Positions 11,870-42,079 of a DNA stretch of 42,079 nt are shown in pieces (the first letter of the stretch is position 1; every line of letters starts with the position of its first letter). The DNA lies in assembly GCA_031425655.1 (NCBI GenBank), contig JANPJS010000093.1, positions 1-42,079 on the forward strand, in the 5' to 3' direction. Both the position numbers and the translations under genes were made by a program. The notes below the pieces were generated by a model. The model did no database searches. It was not told where the DNA came from and was given only the letters and a program-made list of their open reading frames with translations. This DNA comes from Abditibacteriaceae bacterium (GTDB taxonomy: Bacteria; Armatimonadota; Abditibacteriia; Abditibacteriales; Abditibacteriaceae).

Positions 11870-12005
11870 GAGCGACTTCGTCGCTCCCGCCCCCACCACC
11901 TGCCCAGAGGGCGCCCGTCCCCCGGAGGGGGAGGAGCCGCGTTTTCTCAAGGATTTTTGCCCTGAAGAGCGCACTCCTCCCCTCCGGGGGAGGTTGGGTG
12001 GGGGC
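11870..12005. repeat. REP-like palindrome with a 20-nt cassette inserted in its left arm
   Basis: TTCG-loop hairpin at 11870-11886, then arms 11889-11936 and 11974-12005. The left arm has ACCTGCCCAGAGGGCGCCCG (11898-11917) where the right arm predicts CAACC. Confidence 0.85.
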
Positions 12006-15741: not shown

Positions 15742-15918
15742 AATTTAACCCCCTGCCCAGAAACCCCATCCCCGGCCCTTCCCCTTGATACGGCAAAGGG
15801 GAAGGGAGATCGACCGTTTTGGATTTGTGAAAAAGCGATAATTTTCCCAGAGTAGAAGAGTCTGAACTCCCTTCCCCTTTGCCGTATCAAGGGGAAGGGC
15901 CGGGGATGGGGTTAAATT
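15742..15918. repeat. Long REP-like palindrome (47-bp perfect arms)
   Basis: 15762-15808 is the exact reverse complement of 15867-15913. It overlaps the glcE-like stop, and the left arm extension is interrupted by 15 extra nt (15753-15767). Confidence 0.9.
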
Positions 15919-17102: not shown

Positions 17103-17110
17103 AATTTTTA

Positions 17111-17177
17111 ACCGCAGAGAACGCAGAGGACGCGGAGGTAAAAGAAAAATCTCTGCGTCCTCTGCGTTCTCTGCGGT
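17111..17177. repeat. Nonamer-based palindromic repeat (CGCAGAGRA units)
   Basis: ACCGCAGAGAACGCAGAGGACGCGGAG (17111-17137) / CTCTGCGTCCTCTGCGTTCTCTGCGGT (17151-17177): 27-bp arms with one mismatch. Confidence 0.88.
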
Positions 17178-17181
17178 GAAA

Positions 17182-19591: not shown

Positions 19592-21157
19592 CTAAAAATC
19601 CCCGTCGTCATCGTCGAACGGGACTGGAACACGAACAGTAGTTGGCGCCGGCGTCGGTGCGGTTTTCTGTTCCAGTTCCTTCGCTTTTTTGTCGTCGGCC
19701 TCGGCCAAATCGTTTTTGTTTTGCTTGCGAAAAGCAATAGCCCGATTGCGATAGGCTCTGGCGTAATCCGCTTGCAAAGCAATCGCCTGCCTGTAGTCCG
19801 CGATGGCTTTGTCCCAGTCTTCTTTGTTGGCGAAGATCACACCGCGATTGTTATAAGCGTTGGCGTCTTTAGGATCAATTTTGATCGCTTGTTCGTAGTC
19901 CGCCATCGCCTTATCCCATTCTTTTTTGTTGTTGTAAGCGTTGCCGCGATTGACGAAAAACGTGTTGTATTTGGGATTAATTTCAATGGCTTTGGTGTAA
20001 TATGCAATCGCCTTGTCGTTGTCGCCGTTGTTCAAATGGGTCAGCGCGCGATTGGCATACGGCCACACGTATTTTGCATCCAAAGCGATAGCCTTGTCGT
20101 AGTTGCCAATCGCCTGAGCAGTTTGCTTCAATGCGCGATAAGCGTTACCCCGCGCGTTGTAGGCAGAAGTATGTTTTTCGTTAAGAACGAGAGCATAATC
20201 GTAATCACGAAGGGCTTTTTCGTAGTCTTGTTTGTTCGCCGACATGGTGCCTCGGTCGTAATAAGCTTCGGCGTCTTTCGGATTGAGTTTCAAGGCTCCG
20301 GTGTAATCGGCGATAGCTTTGTCGTAATCCCGCTTGTCGCTGTAAATCCCGGCGCGGCCCAGCAACGCCTGACGCAACGGTTCGGGTTCCCATTGAAAAG
20401 CGTCGGCGTGCTTGATGATCTCGCTGTAATCACGAAGAAGCTCTTCGGAATAGTTTTTATTCAGCAAAATCTCGGCAGTTTCTAATAATTCAGCCCGTTT
20501 ATTAAAGGCCACGACGCGCTGCGGCTGCAATTCGATAAAGCGATTGTAATCGGCAATCGCTTCGTCGTATTTGCCGGTAAGTCCGTAAATATCGCCGCGT
20601 TTTTCATAAGCCAACGCACTTTGCGGATCGAGTTTGATCGCTTGCGAATAATCGCCGATGGCATCGCCGTAAAAGCCGCGCACATCGAAATAGAGGCCGC
20701 GTTCGTAAAACTCTTTGGCGGTGTTCGGCTTGGCTTTTTCCAGAAAACGCTTGGCGCCGGCCTTCTTTTCGGCTTCGGCCTGCGTTTTATTGCCCTGCGA
20801 TTCATAAATCATCGCGCGGCGAAAATAAACCAGATATTCCCACGCATCGAGTTGCAAAGCTTTGTTAAAATCGGCCAACGCGGCCTCGTAATTTTTCTTG
20901 GCCGCTTGCGCCGTGCCGCGCATCAGATAAGCGGTCGCGTTCTCCGCGCGCTTATTGATGGATTCGCTGAAATCGGCGATGGCTTTATCGTAGTTTTTGG
21001 CGCGCAAAAACTCGTTACCGCGCTGGAAAAATTCGTCCGATGTTTGCGGCGTCGTGCCCTGCGCGCTGGTTGCAACCGACATTCCTGCCAGCAAAATCGC
21101 TACGAAAAACCAATGCGCCGCCACACGGCAGCATTCTTTAAAATGAGTGTTCCGCAC
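19592..21157 (-). CDS. Exported tetratricopeptide repeat protein
   Basis: About 12 canonical repeats of AY.NRG.....YDKAIADY..AI.L.P, with a signal-like N-terminus. Confidence 0.92.
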   Translation of the reverse strand: MRNTHFKECCRVAAHWFFVAILLAGMSVATSAQGTTPQTSDEFFQRGNEFLRAKNYDKAIADFSESINKRAENATAYLMRGTAQAAKKNYEAALADFNKALQLDAWEYLVYFRRAMIYESQGNKTQAEAEKKAGAKRFLEKAKPNTAKEFYERGLYFDVRGFYGDAIGDYSQAIKLDPQSALAYEKRGDIYGLTGKYDEAIADYNRFIELQPQRVVAFNKRAELLETAEILLNKNYSEELLRDYSEIIKHADAFQWEPEPLRQALLGRAGIYSDKRDYDKAIADYTGALKLNPKDAEAYYDRGTMSANKQDYEKALRDYDYALVLNEKHTSAYNARGNAYRALKQTAQAIGNYDKAIALDAKYVWPYANRALTHLNNGDNDKAIAYYTKAIEINPKYNTFFVNRGNAYNNKKEWDKAMADYEQAIKIDPKDANAYNNRGVIFANKEDWDKAIADYRQAIALQADYARAYRNRAIAFRKQNKNDLAEADDKKAKELEQKTAPTPAPTTVRVPVPFDDDDGDF

Positions 21158-22939: not shown

Positions 22940-23169
22940 CTCACGGCGCGGTTAGGCTGTAGTAAGCAGTGTAAAGAGCGGCTTCGCCGCTCGAAGGAAC
23001 CCCCAACCCCCTTGGTAAGGGGGCTTATGGCCTTACGGGTTGGAAAAGGAATAGCGCTTTTCTTCTCCAACCAGGCACGCGATAGCCCCCTTACCAAGGG
23101 GGTTGGGGGTTCCTTCGAGCGGCGAAGCCGCTCTTGTCCCCATCTACCATAAGGACGCCGCGTAACATG
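22940..23169. mobile_element. MITE-like element A (52-bp perfect inner palindrome, degenerate outer termini)
   Basis: 22974-23025 is the exact reverse complement of 23084-23135. On both sides CGCGG lies exactly 22 nt outside the inner arm, with TRTRGTAR in between. Confidence 0.75.
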
Positions 23170-27182: not shown

Positions 27183-27221
27183 GATGAGAATTTAGAAGTT
27201 AGAATGAAGAAAATCGAAGCC

Positions 27222-27463
27222 TCCCCTTACGCAGTCTGGCCGGTTTAAACGGGAAGACGGAAAGAACGGGAAGACGGAAAGTGTTGGGAGTTGACGAGGC
27301 GAAAAAGCGGCTTAAACACAGCGCTCATCCAATATCCAAGCGCAAACCCAACAGATAATGTGGATTTCCGCCCCTCCAATGCACTCAAATTTCTTCCCGC
27401 CTTCCCGTTCTTTCCGCCTCCCCGTTGAAAAACCACGGATGCATAGCACGCTGCGTAAGGTGA
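27222..27463. mobile_element. MITE-like element B (TCMCCTTACGCAG termini, 17-nt repeat core)
   Basis: Ends are TCCCCTTACGCAG / CTGCGTAAGGTGA. The core is (AACGGGAAGACGGAAAG)x2 at 27248-27281 with a near-complementary copy at 27393-27426. Confidence 0.8.
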
Positions 27464-27468
27464 CTTAC

Positions 27469-29213: not shown

Positions 29214-29363
29214 AGTGCATTTCAGTGAAACTCGCGCATAACGCCATTATTCAACAAAGCCACGCCGCGCGGCCTTTCAACGCTTCGGAAAAGCGCGGCG
29301 GCAGCCATGCTTTAGCAGCATTCGCACGTCGCTTTTTCGCTGACGATTCCGGTTTCAAATTCA

Positions 29364-29584
29364 CTCACCTTAAGCGGTGGAGTGTGTTAGGCAGGCAAAT
29401 TCAAGAAGCGCTGTCATTCTGAGCTTGCGAAGAATCTCGGCCTATGCGGTGTTTTTGCTCATGCTGAGTGTGGAGCCGCTTACGCAGAGATTCTTCGCAA
29501 GCTCAGAATGACCAAACTCCTTTGCCTTCCCGTGATTCGCAGGCTAATAGCTGCGCCTACCATAACCCGACCGCGTCAGGGGAG
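29364..29584. mobile_element. MITE-like element C (26-bp perfect GTCATTCTGAG..GAAGAATCTC core)
   Basis: Inner arms at 29413-29438 and 29487-29512. Outer termini are CTCACCTTAAGCGGT..TGTTAGGC and GCCTACCATA..ACCGCGTCAGGGGAG. A second copy is at 41914. Confidence 0.82.
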
Positions 29585-29588
29585 AAAT

Positions 29589-30401
29589 TCAGTTGCGCAG
29601 ACTTTTTTCGCGCAGCAGAGCATCGGCCCAAACCGCGTCTTCAGGGCGCAGCGGCAGCGGCGGCTCGTTCTGATAATTGATGCGCCGCGCGAAATTTCCG
29701 GCTGCGTAACAGTGATCGAAAAGCGCTTGCAAATCCACTACGATGTCGCTGTCTTCGGGCAACAAAGGCACAGCGAAACGCGGCAGCCGCTGGCGCACGC
29801 TGCGCGCCCATACATCGTAAAGATAAGCGGTTGAGGCACGGTGCAAACACACGCAGTAATCGAAATTGCCGCGCGCGAGCAGCGACTCTCGCTCGACGGC
29901 GACGCTGTGCAATCCGCCGCGCAGCAGGTCTATTTCCAGTAAATGGGTGTCGCTGTCCAGCACTTGCTGCTGCTTTTTCACGTAAGAGTCGTGTCCGCGA
30001 TTGCCGCGTGTTTTATTGGCCGGACTAAGCACTTCGATGACGGTCACAACGCGACCTTCGTCGGCCACGGGCACAATTTCAATGAAAACTTCGCGCCGTT
30101 CTGCCGAATAACTCACACGATAAGGCTCATCACTGACGAGCGGCGGCGCTTCGGCCACGGCAACGCCGCCTTCGCTTTCGCCGCGCAGAGGATGCTGCAC
30201 AATCAGCACATCGGGATAAATCGTGCGCTCACGGTCGCCAATATCGGCCACAAAAAGCCGCTCGCCGATATTAGCGACGTAGTGAGAGGGCAGTTTCGCG
30301 TTGAGTTCATCGCCCAAATAGGTGATGAGACGCTGATGAACCGCTGGAAACCAGGCCGAGTGTTCGAGATAAGGATCCATTCCGGGAAACGGGCTGAGCA
30401 T
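29589..30401 (-). CDS. DUF4058 family protein (putative PD-(D/E)XK nuclease-like)
   Basis: M.SPFPGMDPYLE signature, PDV, IEVLSPANK, HLLEIDLLRGG, LP...VPL. Confidence 0.85.
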   Translation of the reverse strand: MLSPFPGMDPYLEHSAWFPAVHQRLITYLGDELNAKLPSHYVANIGERLFVADIGDRERTIYPDVLIVQHPLRGESEGGVAVAEAPPLVSDEPYRVSYSAERREVFIEIVPVADEGRVVTVIEVLSPANKTRGNRGHDSYVKKQQQVLDSDTHLLEIDLLRGGLHSVAVERESLLARGNFDYCVCLHRASTAYLYDVWARSVRQRLPRFAVPLLPEDSDIVVDLQALFDHCYAAGNFARRINYQNEPPLPLRPEDAVWADALLREKSLRN

Positions 30402-30419: not shown

Positions 30420-31182
30420 TCACAGTTTAGTGCGCGCCGCAAAACAGGTCACGCCGCCAAAGTTGTAATCGAAAGCGCGCACGTCGCTAAAGCCGCATTC
30501 GCGTAATAAATGGATGAATTCCGCACGCGAATAAAAGCCGTCAACCGAAGCCGGCAAATACGAATAAGCCGAATTATGCTTGGATATTATGCGTCCCACG
30601 CACGGCAAAATACCTTTGAAGAATAAAGCAAAAATATGGCGCAGAAAAAACGAAGTCGGGCGCATAAATTCTAAAATTAAAACGCGCCCGCCCGGTTTCA
30701 AAACGCGATCTATTTCGCGCAAACCGGCCTGCGTATTTTCAAAATTACGCACGCCAAAACCCACGGTTACGGCATCGAAAAATGCGTCGTCAAACGGCAA
30801 AGCCAGCGCGTCGGCGAAGACGAAGTGGGGCTGGAGGCCGGGTGCCCTCTGGGCAGGTGCTGGAGGCTGGGAAGATTCCGCCTCCCGCCGTCCGCCTCCC
30901 GCCTCCCGCCTTCCGTCTCGCAATTTCCAGCATCGGCTCGGCGAAATCGGCGCCGGTGACGTGGCAGCGCGGCTGGCGGCGCGATATTTCAAAGGCCAAA
31001 TCGCCGGTGCCGCAGCATAAATCGAGAATATTTTCGCCGGCGCGCGGCGTTAATAAACGCACGGCGCGACGGCGCCAGCGCACATCCTGATTGGCCGATA
31101 ATAAATGATTTAACAGGTCGTAGCGTCCGGCGATGGAAGAAAACATCGCCTGCACGCTTTGCGAGGATTTATCAACGGGCAT
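30420..31182 (-). pseudogene. menG: Ubiquinone/menaquinone C-methyltransferase (UbiE/MenG) frameshifted within a repeat insertion
   Basis: 5' frame: VQAMFSSIA.RYDLLN.LLS...D.RWRR, LDLCCGTGD, DF...ML..ARRK. 3' frame: FVFADALALPFDD..FDAVTVGFGVRN, RVLKPGG, AYSYLPAS. The frames switch in the repeat tract at 30826-30915. Confidence 0.88.
30826..30915. repeat. Inverted heptamer arrays plus 20-nt cassette inside menG
   Basis: Minus strand: GGAAGGC GGGAGGC GGGAGGC GGACGGC GGGAGGC ... GCCTCCA GC[ACCTGCCCAGAGGGCACCCG]GCCTCCA GCCCCAC. The cassette is at 30839-30858. Confidence 0.9.
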
Positions 31183-34333: not shown

Positions 34334-34402
34334 TGCGCGCCCGGTTGCCGCGCATGAAATCCGCGCTTTGTTTTAGCCCTCATCCGCGACGTTTTCGGTA
34401 AA

Positions 34403-34474
34403 AAAGCGGGGCTGCGCCCTCTTCCAAACGGCGTTGTTCCATTCCGCGTTTGGAAGAGGGCGTAGCCCCGCTTT
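34403..34474. repeat. REP-like palindrome (same family as 26395-26472)
   Basis: AAAGCGGGGCTGCGCCCTCTTCCAAACG ... CGTTTGGAAGAGGGCGTAGCCCCGCTTT, overlapping the PqaA-like stop. Confidence 0.85.
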
Positions 34475-35936
34475 ATTTCGCCCCGGCGTCGGGCTGCGCC
34501 TTCCAGATTATTACATCGGAAGACAGGCGCAGCGGCACTAAAGCGCCCGGCTGCGGCACGTCAATTTCGGCGAAGACGGCGGCGTATGGTAACTCGGCGG
34601 TGCCTGCCGGAACTGCGATTTGCGCTGCGGTTTGTTTGCCGTCGTGCTGCAATTCTTTGAGGCCCGACGACTGCCAGCGCGAAGCGCGAAAATCGCGCGT
34701 AGCCGAACGCGCCGTCCATAAACGCGCGGTATTAATCTTCTCGGTCGCAATCACGCGCAGCGAAACTTTCGCGGCGCCGTTGGCCGCGTCTATCTGCGAA
34801 GTCAGTTCGACTTTGGGTGCGGCTTTTCCGGCGAGCAGGCGCGAAAACCAATTGCTCAGCGAGCCGAAAACGCGAATCTCCTCGCCGCTCATGCTGTGTT
34901 TGGCATTTGGGACATGAAGTACGTCGGTTTGGCCCGGCAAACCGGCGCGATAAAGGTCGAGCGCGTCCAAAGGCCAGTAGGAATCATTGGCCGCGTTGAC
35001 GATGAATTTCGGCATGGTGAAGCGTTGGCGATACGTCCACGGGTCAACCATTGCGCCCAATTGCTGGCCGCGCGGAGTGGCCAACGCGGCGGGCAAATTC
35101 AATTCGGTGTAATCGGAAATGCTTTTGGAAAAACTGCCCCACACTTCGATTTGATGCGGCATCTGGAGCGGCAAATTGAGGTTGTTGTAAACCATCGGCA
35201 TGATGCCGACGACGCGCTTATCGGCGGCGGCGCTCAGCCACGAAGTCCAGCCGCGTTTGCTGGCGCCGGTCACGACAAATTTCTTAATGGGTGCTTTCCA
35301 TTCTTTCGTCGAAAATTCGCTGATGGCATCCATCGATTTGACGGCGCTTTTAGTCATCGGAAAAAGCAGCGGCCAATTCGCATCGCCGGTTTCGAGATAT
35401 TTGGCGAAGGTGTGCGCGATGAGAGCATCTTCGCTGAGTCCGAAAAGCGGCTGATTGGGCACATCGCCCAAAACCGCCACCGGCGCGCCCGTTAAGTTGG
35501 CCACCACTTTGGCCAAGGCCAGTTCTTCGGCGCTGCCCGAACCGTAGGTGATGAGCAGCAAAGCCGTGTCGGGATGCGTCACTTTGGCCGGTCGAATGAC
35601 GCTGAGATGATGCGTCCACGGCTTGCCCTGCCATTCCTGCGAAGTGAGGGTCAATTGCGTGGTTTGCGCGCCGCTGCCGAGCGTTTGCACCATCATGTCA
35701 ACCATGGCGTCGCCGCTTTCCACGACAACTGCAGGAATCGGATTAGCGGTTTTCACCCATTTGTAAAGCGGTTCGGGCCGCGCGATGAAATCGTCTAATT
35801 CGCGCGGAATTGTCGGAATGGCAGCCGGCGAAGTCGGCGCGACTTTCGATGTTTCCTGCGCGCCGCAGCCGGAGGCCAGCAGGCTGGCAGTAGCAAAAAT
35901 AAGTGTCGTTAAACGATATTCGGTGCGATAAATCAT
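34473..35936 (-). CDS. PhoPQ-activated pathogenicity-related (PqaA) family lipoprotein, alpha/beta hydrolase
   Basis: Lipobox LASGC, LTSQ.WQG..W.H, VPNQP, ED..IA.T, FPM.KS...MD, GASKRGWT.W, VDP..Y, PNA.H. Confidence 0.88.
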   Translation of the reverse strand: MIYRTEYRLTTLIFATASLLASGCGAQETSKVAPTSPAAIPTIPRELDDFIARPEPLYKWVKTANPIPAVVVESGDAMVDMMVQTLGSGAQTTQLTLTSQEWQGKPWTHHLSVIRPAKVTHPDTALLLITYGSGSAEELALAKVVANLTGAPVAVLGDVPNQPLFGLSEDALIAHTFAKYLETGDANWPLLFPMTKSAVKSMDAISEFSTKEWKAPIKKFVVTGASKRGWTSWLSAAADKRVVGIMPMVYNNLNLPLQMPHQIEVWGSFSKSISDYTELNLPAALATPRGQQLGAMVDPWTYRQRFTMPKFIVNAANDSYWPLDALDLYRAGLPGQTDVLHVPNAKHSMSGEEIRVFGSLSNWFSRLLAGKAAPKVELTSQIDAANGAAKVSLRVIATEKINTARLWTARSATRDFRASRWQSSGLKELQHDGKQTAAQIAVPAGTAELPYAAVFAEIDVPQPGALVPLRLSSDVIIWKAQPDAGAK

Positions 35937-41907: not shown

Positions 41908-41913
41908 AAAGGT

Positions 41914-42079
41914 TCACCTTACGCAGTGGGATGTGGTAGGCAGGCAAATTCAAGAAGCGCTGTCATTCTGAGTCCTGGGCCGTGGGCACCCGGACGGAGC
42001 TCGGGCACTGGGGTGGGGTTGGTGAGGGTGTGTGTGGAGGGTGTTACGGAGGGATTGTGGCGGGTGCCCACTGGGGAGG
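41914..42079. mobile_element. MITE-like element D (copy of element C, truncated, with cassette in both arms)
   Basis: TCACCTTACGCAGTGGGATGTGGTAGGCAGGCAAATTCAAGAAGCGCTGTCATTCTGAG matches 29365-29423. The rest aligns without gaps to the element C loop, with mostly N-to-G substitutions. Confidence 0.8.

Follow-up and report, generated by a model that had tools for sequence, protein, structure and literature searches.

A 19-nt hairpin cassette that replaces C-NNNN and lies at mirror positions in the arms of a palindromic MITE

Copies of a MITE family in the genome examined here exist in empty and filled forms, the filled ones carrying a 19-nt hairpin cassette in one arm of an inner palindrome or, at mirror-image positions, in both. 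The cassette is an independent unit that replaces C-NNNN by a variable base N and itself, leaving no target duplication, and the mirror symmetry is best explained by the known process of arm-to-arm copying. To this three-layer account as a whole (MITE host, 19-nt cassette, mirror copying) we assign a probability of roughly 70%. The pattern was noticed in a window of 42,079 nt, which is the whole of contig C93 of the source genome (G000; 5.98 Mb, 327 contigs, 97% complete), by comparison of an empty copy, C, with a copy at the contig end, D, both of which the first-pass annotation placed correctly (Table 1). The empty/filled pattern is real, and the letters that drew attention to it, the final 166 bases of the contig, are partly an artefact.

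Table 1. Features of the MITE copies C and D, the intact cassettes of the window, and IS110-family sites in the source genome
Feature	Position	Strand	Remark
Target duplication (7 bp), left side of MITE copy C	29357..29363	+	repeated at 29585-29591
Complete MITE copy, empty, comprising inner palindrome, outer flanks and terminal inverted repeats	29364..29584	.	
Element C: inner palindrome formed by a REP doublet, empty in both arms	29413..29512	.	
Empty target C-TTGC, left arm of C	29424..29428	+	mirror at 29497-29501
Right 7-bp target duplication of C	29585..29591	+	
Outer flank and left terminal repeat of MITE copy D	41913..41961	+	reliable sequence
Outer portion of D left arm	41962..41972	+	
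Variable base (T) and 19-nt cassette, D left arm	41973..41992	+	first 5 bases clean, remainder degraded
D inner arms and 52-nt spacer	41993..42060	+	letters corrupted towards G
Mirror cassette, D right arm, at contig end	42061..42079	-	17/19 identical
Intact cassette within another family of hairpin repeats	11899..11917	+	
Intact cassette in heptamer-type tandem repeat	30839..30857	-	
IS110-family element in the cassette loop (about ten copies over this row and the next)	G000 C15, C23, C58, C71, C97, C101, C154, C205, C248, C302		
IS110-family element, contigs continued	G000 C64-C66, C70, C88, C170, C189, C212, C220		both rows mostly contig ends

The 100-nt palindrome of C (z=-10.1) lies where it was first described, but it is the core of a larger unit, which ends in terminal inverted repeats and is flanked by an exact target duplication of 7 bp, and it is to this larger unit that the label MITE applies. 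Terminal inverted repeats of ~17 nt are present in 26 copies of the family, and 20 complete copies have a target duplication of exactly 7 bp (12 copies), 6 bp (one) or 5 bp (one), or none (six). Members of this multicopy family are about 190-280 bp long with no called gene inside, and in the fragmented G000 assembly no transposase-like gene that could mark an autonomous partner was found between such ends within 3.5 kb. The inner palindrome is an inverted REP doublet forming a hairpin, its arms being TGTC-type REP hairpins. The host is a ~200-230-bp MITE carrying a doublet of the kind that flanks small GIY-YIG genes: arm-like repeats adjoin such a gene in G000 and in 6/6 fetched homologue loci. 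A RAYT flanked by the same REP was not found, as the flanks of 6/6 Y1 genes held neither such an arm (judged by eye) nor the cassette. The empty arm occurs in 14/19 genomes of the family, cassette-free ones among them, and the empty state is therefore ancestral. Elsewhere in the window, positions 27221-27464 are a MITE with the terminal repeats of C and D and a different hairpin cargo, of which the genome holds at least 18 copies. Other long intergenic palindromes lie at 22974-23135 and 15762-15913, which belong to families whose other copies bear the cassette, and at 17107-17181 and 34400-34477. A 521-aa ORF at 19592-21157 contains 102-nt periodic repeats which, by their period, are typical of TPR motifs.

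Copy D repeats the left flank and arm of C (92% over 59 nt), has cassette-like stretches in both arms, of which the left matches a clean copy at 16/20 positions, and aligns to C without gaps between them (44/68 identical), all as originally claimed. C and D stand at different loci, and so represent paralogous empty and filled alleles rather than two states of one site. Compared with a clean double-filled copy on contig C228, the inner part of D (41962-42079, the last 118 nt) differs at 28 positions; across the family D has 28-32 mismatches of 118 to double-filled and 46-47 to single-filled copies. It retains all 37 reference G, while 22 of the 28 changes are to G, as the caveat about a low-quality read end had anticipated, and four more are from A to C or T. 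In two-colour sequencing chemistry lost signal is called as G, and 26/28 differences run in the direction of such loss. The D tail nonetheless agrees with the clean double-filled copy at 74/102 positions, far above the maximum of 48 reached by shuffles (mean 28.8), so the likeness is not due to chance. The letters of D from 41978 onward are wrong and not real sequence, and, given the direction of the changes, the tail match and the better fit to double-filled copies, D is very likely the degraded read-out of a double-filled copy.

The probable source sequencing run is identical to the D contig over 41200-41966, without a single difference, and contains both empty and filled continuations as loose ends of family copies, so that it cannot phase the D locus; the four runs compared are contigs, none of which spans 41980-42079, an absence to which no weight was given. 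Matching of target duplications across G000 found no continuation of D, and its true sequence was not recovered. The sequence that had been predicted for it is nevertheless present as clean copies elsewhere in the genome (e.g. on C228, C296 and C1), beyond which D itself contributes nothing. The clean double-filled copy is predicted to fold into one long stem (-59.6 kcal/mol, vs -38.1 for C), and this stem is a plausible cause of the read failure at D. Other G-rich, low-complexity contig tails in G000 (C160, C226, C268, C14, C136, C21) resemble the same read-end artefact.

The cassette, CCTGCCC-ARA-GGGCRCCCG, emerged as the dominant context-independent insert from an unbiased scan of G000 intergenic DNA, with 211 exact and 320 near matches in the genome, and has relatives of 18, 22 and 23 nt. 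An empty counterpart was identified for 208/309 sites, and at 179 of these 208 exactly five bases are replaced, C-NNNN becoming N plus the 19-nt cassette, without target duplication. What had been read as an insertion is in fact a 5-to-20 replacement. Departures from five bases account for the other 29/208 sites. The first target base is C in 50/51 site clusters and no other position is conserved; as these clusters are kin by descent, p-values overstate. The 22- and 23-nt relatives, which keep the CC and CCCG tails, fit the rule in all eight contexts with an empty allele (of 12 contexts). The cassette lies in repeated flanks in 243/320 cases, vs 828/4000 intergenic and 73/4000 coding controls, a bias that survival in dispensable DNA and amplification by the host may explain in part. 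It also adds five in-frame residues to two domains that look by eye like Calx-beta. A further cassette interrupts a tRNA-Arg(TCG) gene (L088:403-489, on contig C61), which belongs to an array with no fewer than five tRNA genes. Whole repeats with nested cassettes are translated in frame in long genes (C13:7314, C109:8205, C114:5742, C128:17693, C150:9387, C202:1428, C267:5874), resembling Rickettsia palindromic elements.

The same 19-mer is present in 9/41 relatives searched, 7/201 genomes of the phylum and 2/251 genomes of the phylum of G041, and four Chloroflexota genomes carry 10-16 copies each. This patchy distribution suggests horizontal spread. Outside G000, 32/124 contexts have an empty counterpart; the replaced stretch is 5 nt in 24 of these 32, beginning with C in 21 of the 24, and departs from that length in the other eight. 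The rule is seen too in Chloroflexota repeats and in a phage portal-like gene, where a direct empty/filled pair exists, and is broken by one family in G328, in which 8 nt are replaced. The cassette is also found in frame in fragments of Tn3 and IS256-family transposases. Pfam gave no name for L028, L081, L060, L006 or L091, which resemble transposases by eye. Five phage-like contigs (L144-L148) bear at most two cassettes apiece, located next to structural-looking genes or in frame within them. All three cassettes of the single-contig genome G011 (L124-L126) occupy one position of a ~200-nt inverted-repeat element, in which Rfam identified nothing relevant.

The base in front of the cassette varies in a non-random manner. 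Among 85 events in G000 N is T in 48, C in 19, A in 16 and G in two, and it is sometimes missing. In G000 N is A in 2/33 events after a purine and in 12/28 after a pyrimidine (p=0.0015), and the other genomes give 0/27 and 16/39 (p=6e-5). This comparison left out single hits in several genomes that resemble chance coding matches (e.g. L012, L013, L032, L035, L046, L054), along with L024, L040 and L132-L134. Between N and the cassette allele there is no association (p=0.81 and 0.37), and with the 18-nt form N is always T. Since A nearly always follows an upstream pyrimidine and N is independent of the allele, N is more likely to have been written at the target than carried in.

A genome-wide count of paired copies of the C/D family, which the first-pass annotation had proposed, gave 45 empty, nine single-filled and seven double-filled copies (n=61, four of 65 paired rows having been dropped as contig-end duplicates, and D standing outside the counts). 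Seven double-filled copies compare with 2.1 expected (p=3e-4). The excess is evident in the 52-nt-spacer class (14 empty, five single-filled, five double-filled, p=0.015), absent from the 43-nt class, and borderline among the 37 copies away from contig ends (27 empty, seven single-filled, three double-filled vs 1.1 expected, p=0.056). Double-filled copies are present in three spacer classes, their spacers do not form a clade (P=0.46, in a comparison where one row, C83, is out of register), and for most of them an empty copy is one of the closest relatives. Within the family the spacer is found in both orientations against one fixed flank.

Two variable positions inside the cassette, together with N, provide a tag for each event, and the tags preserve, across the genome, a natural trace of how palindromic repeats copy one arm to the other. 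One tag is present in 23/25 filled arms of the C/D family (92% of the pool), so most filled arms descend from one insertion; this allele uniformity leads us to infer a single founder insertion for nearly all of them in G000. With a pool so uniform the comparison of partners is uninformative in this family, and rests on the others. Across G000 the tag is shared in 17/18 same-site mirror pairs, and non-mirror neighbouring cassettes match in 3/14. Among pairs outside the C/D family that have a comparison pool, partners match in 9/10, vs 2.7 expected from each family's own allele pool, a level reached in 0 of 200,000 simulations. On contigs C186, C290 and C168 the two partners, and they only, share a private allele. 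Mirror partners are likewise identical in 14/14 pairs of other genomes; G003 (=G045) contributes eight of these, which make up every close opposite-strand pair in its listing; their contigs measure 62 kb to 2.2 Mb, and tags vary from pair to pair. The equivalent arm position carries three different alleles in G000, G001 (same genus) and G003, indicating that the site was re-hit between lineages and copied within the element.

Partners therefore share allele and N far above the pool expectation, and this bears on the two options originally offered for the mirror arrangement: targeting of the same site twice is unsupported within an element, and copying of one insertion to the other arm is supported. 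We conclude that one mirror cassette is a copy of the other and that the two did not arrive independently. The pattern itself is plain, and would follow from template switching between the inverted arms, by which a filled arm would be copied to its partner and spacers would also be flipped.

Four other explanations were weighed. Both arms might have been hit in one event, for example on an extruded cruciform, by one donor, a 20-nt unit that already includes N; the dependence of N on the upstream base would then reflect one-base pairing between donor flank and target. This would give identical partners without conversion, and accords with arms that often differ right next to identical cassettes and with the constant T of the 18-nt form. 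It is nevertheless unlikely, as the single-filled state is no rarer than the double-filled one (nine vs seven), N is unlinked from both allele sites, which are only 8 and 14 bases away, and the constant target C is left unexplained. Partner-templated correction would also be unnecessary if family copies recombined, or if a filled arm was duplicated in inverted orientation at the element's birth, followed by spread of the MITE. The dominance of one founder allele in the C/D family, the shuffling of flanks and spacers among copies, and a filled unit in G328 amplified 11 times by its host are all compatible with this. We consider it quite improbable, since the private alleles confined to partners are not predicted by recombination within the pool, though birth by duplication could accommodate them.

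Short-read assemblers can symmetrise or duplicate palindromic repeats, which would make D a chimera, and it is true that 48/654 contig ends stop at the C/D family, that three loci at contig ends had been counted in duplicate, with C185 and C218 sharing a flank, and that the tail of D is corrupt. An assembly artefact is very improbable as the source of the pattern, however, given three double-filled copies within contigs, two of them with exact target duplications, the identity of 8/8 pairs in the long contigs of G003, whose alleles differ from pair to pair, and single-filled copies assembled as such. Independent targeting of a hotspot, which different alleles at the same arm position in three genomes and two or three N values at several sites might suggest, is hardly credible, as N and allele would coincide in ~9% of pairs if the events were independent, and not in the observed 17/18. 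Copying between arms is thus retained as the explanation of the mirror symmetry.

How the cassette itself enters is a separate matter. A fixed loss of four bases without duplication does not fit DDE, IS200/IS605 or IS110 signatures; the five-base replacement at 179/208 sites is neither the duplication nor the clean insertion of a MITE or IS. Movement by IS200/IS605 or RAYT enzymes, which insert beside a 2-5-nt target and remove no bases, was rejected because bases are lost, and Y1 (PF01797) was not found in 3/4 cassette-bearing Chloroflexota, genomes whose completeness is not established. A type IA topoisomerase has C at -4 of its cut and was rejected since here C is at -5. Our tentative preference is for a patch made in one strand at a modified cytosine. 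The cassette would join by its 5' end at the target C, the strand would be cut another four bases along in the 3' direction, at the fifth bond from C, the cassette 3' end would be ligated at that cut, and copying across the damaged or modified C would write N. UvrC-type 3' incision falls at the fourth or fifth bond, and N3/N4-modified cytosine miscodes as T/A. No structure or pairing preference was detected at the target C, and replication and transcription strand bias were not significant (82/147 and 59/115); these null results might count against a single-strand model, which could have shown such effects.

Searches for an enzyme gave no candidate among multi-copy genes near cassettes in G000, or among genes shared near cassettes across genomes. 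Five loci on viral contigs have structural-looking genes only, and a comparison of 1.39 Mb of the ~1.5-Mb G328 with G000 proteins gave top hits that were housekeeping-like by eye. In RT, Y1 and GIY-YIG profile searches no gene tracks the cassette. The RT profile (PF00078) was not found in G000 (97% complete), G001 or G002, the three richest short-contig cassette genomes, and was found in 12/12 cassette-free relatives and in 4/4 cassette-bearing Chloroflexota. In genus g1 the RVT_1 gene is absent or broken, and it is present in 16/16 other family genomes searched.

The cassette is also the target of another element. An IS110-family element lies in the cassette loop at 10/11 of the sites that match one of its ends and at 9/10 of those that match the other, one of these ten being a chance match, and has an AG/CT core; PF02371 adjoins the element end at C101. 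Its non-coding end contains a 9-nt match to the left target half and, for the right half, a match in reverse, a layout of left and right target matches described for bridge RNAs in passages of PMC11208160, and so a bridge-RNA-like, putative guide may direct the element to the cassette. The minimum-energy fold of this guide-like end did not show the canonical loop. In its CT core and in the 9-nt left and reverse right guide-like matches the element is like the IS621-type IS110 of those passages (Durrant et al. 2024, PMC11208160), and unlike it in that the target is the 19-nt cassette itself. The IS110 element uses the cassette and does not explain its origin.

The exact footprint seen here bears on how very small bacterial repeats move: a C becomes N, four bases are lost and no target is duplicated, at dozens of sites hit independently in two phyla. 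It excludes the standard signatures and points to an unrecognised insertion reaction. A 19-nt gene-free replicator with new chemistry, in which an oligonucleotide is joined at a cytosine, a 3' incision is made at the fifth bond, ligation follows and the modified base miscodes, is a speculative and somewhat doubtful reading. If it were true the cassette would be among the smallest known mobile elements, a replicator that had passed from one phylum to another, that breaks up transposases, phage genes and tRNA arrays, and that had acquired an RNA-guided parasite. A reaction that writes a defined 20-mer at almost any C would be of interest as DNA chemistry.

The Nostoc SDRs are reportedly 21-27 nt long. 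At 18-23 nt, and with 243/320 copies in repeated flanks, the cassette is similarly a structured repeat inserted in other repeats. A literature search found no description of the cassette or its replacement rule, the closest paper (Elhai et al. 2008, Genome Res 18:1484) being represented by passages that cite it. As far as such passages go, the cassette is like Nostoc SDR1-8, very small hairpin repeats that insert precisely in other repeats by an enzyme that is not known (PMC4390886, PMC5861425). SDR5 enters the HIP1 octamer directly after its third base (same sources); unlike this, the target word of the cassette is one C only, with four bases lost and one randomised.

The core of the host resembles, in the corresponding passages, the CGTC/TGTC-tagged REP doublets (PMC3733652) and REPINs (PMC3116915), as an intergenic inverted doublet of short tagged hairpins. 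It differs from them in being the cargo of a MITE with terminal inverted repeats and target duplication. Di Nocera et al. 2013 (PMC3733652) noted TGTC variants with no dedicated transposase in passages where GIY-YIG is unmentioned, whereas relatives of our doublet flank GIY-YIG genes; and unlike REPINs as presented in passages of Bertels and Rainey 2011 (PMC3116915), neither doublet nor cassette was found here to flank a RAYT. Homogenisation of arms and inversion of spacers between inverted repeats are, according to passages of the quasipalindrome studies (PMC5941160, PMC8604942), a known signature of template switching. The block copied here is 20 for five bases over a 40-70-nt spacer, larger than the substitutions analysed in those passages, and PMC8604942 left out indels. 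Arm-to-arm template switching is known biology, and the surprise is the rule by which the cassette replaces its target.
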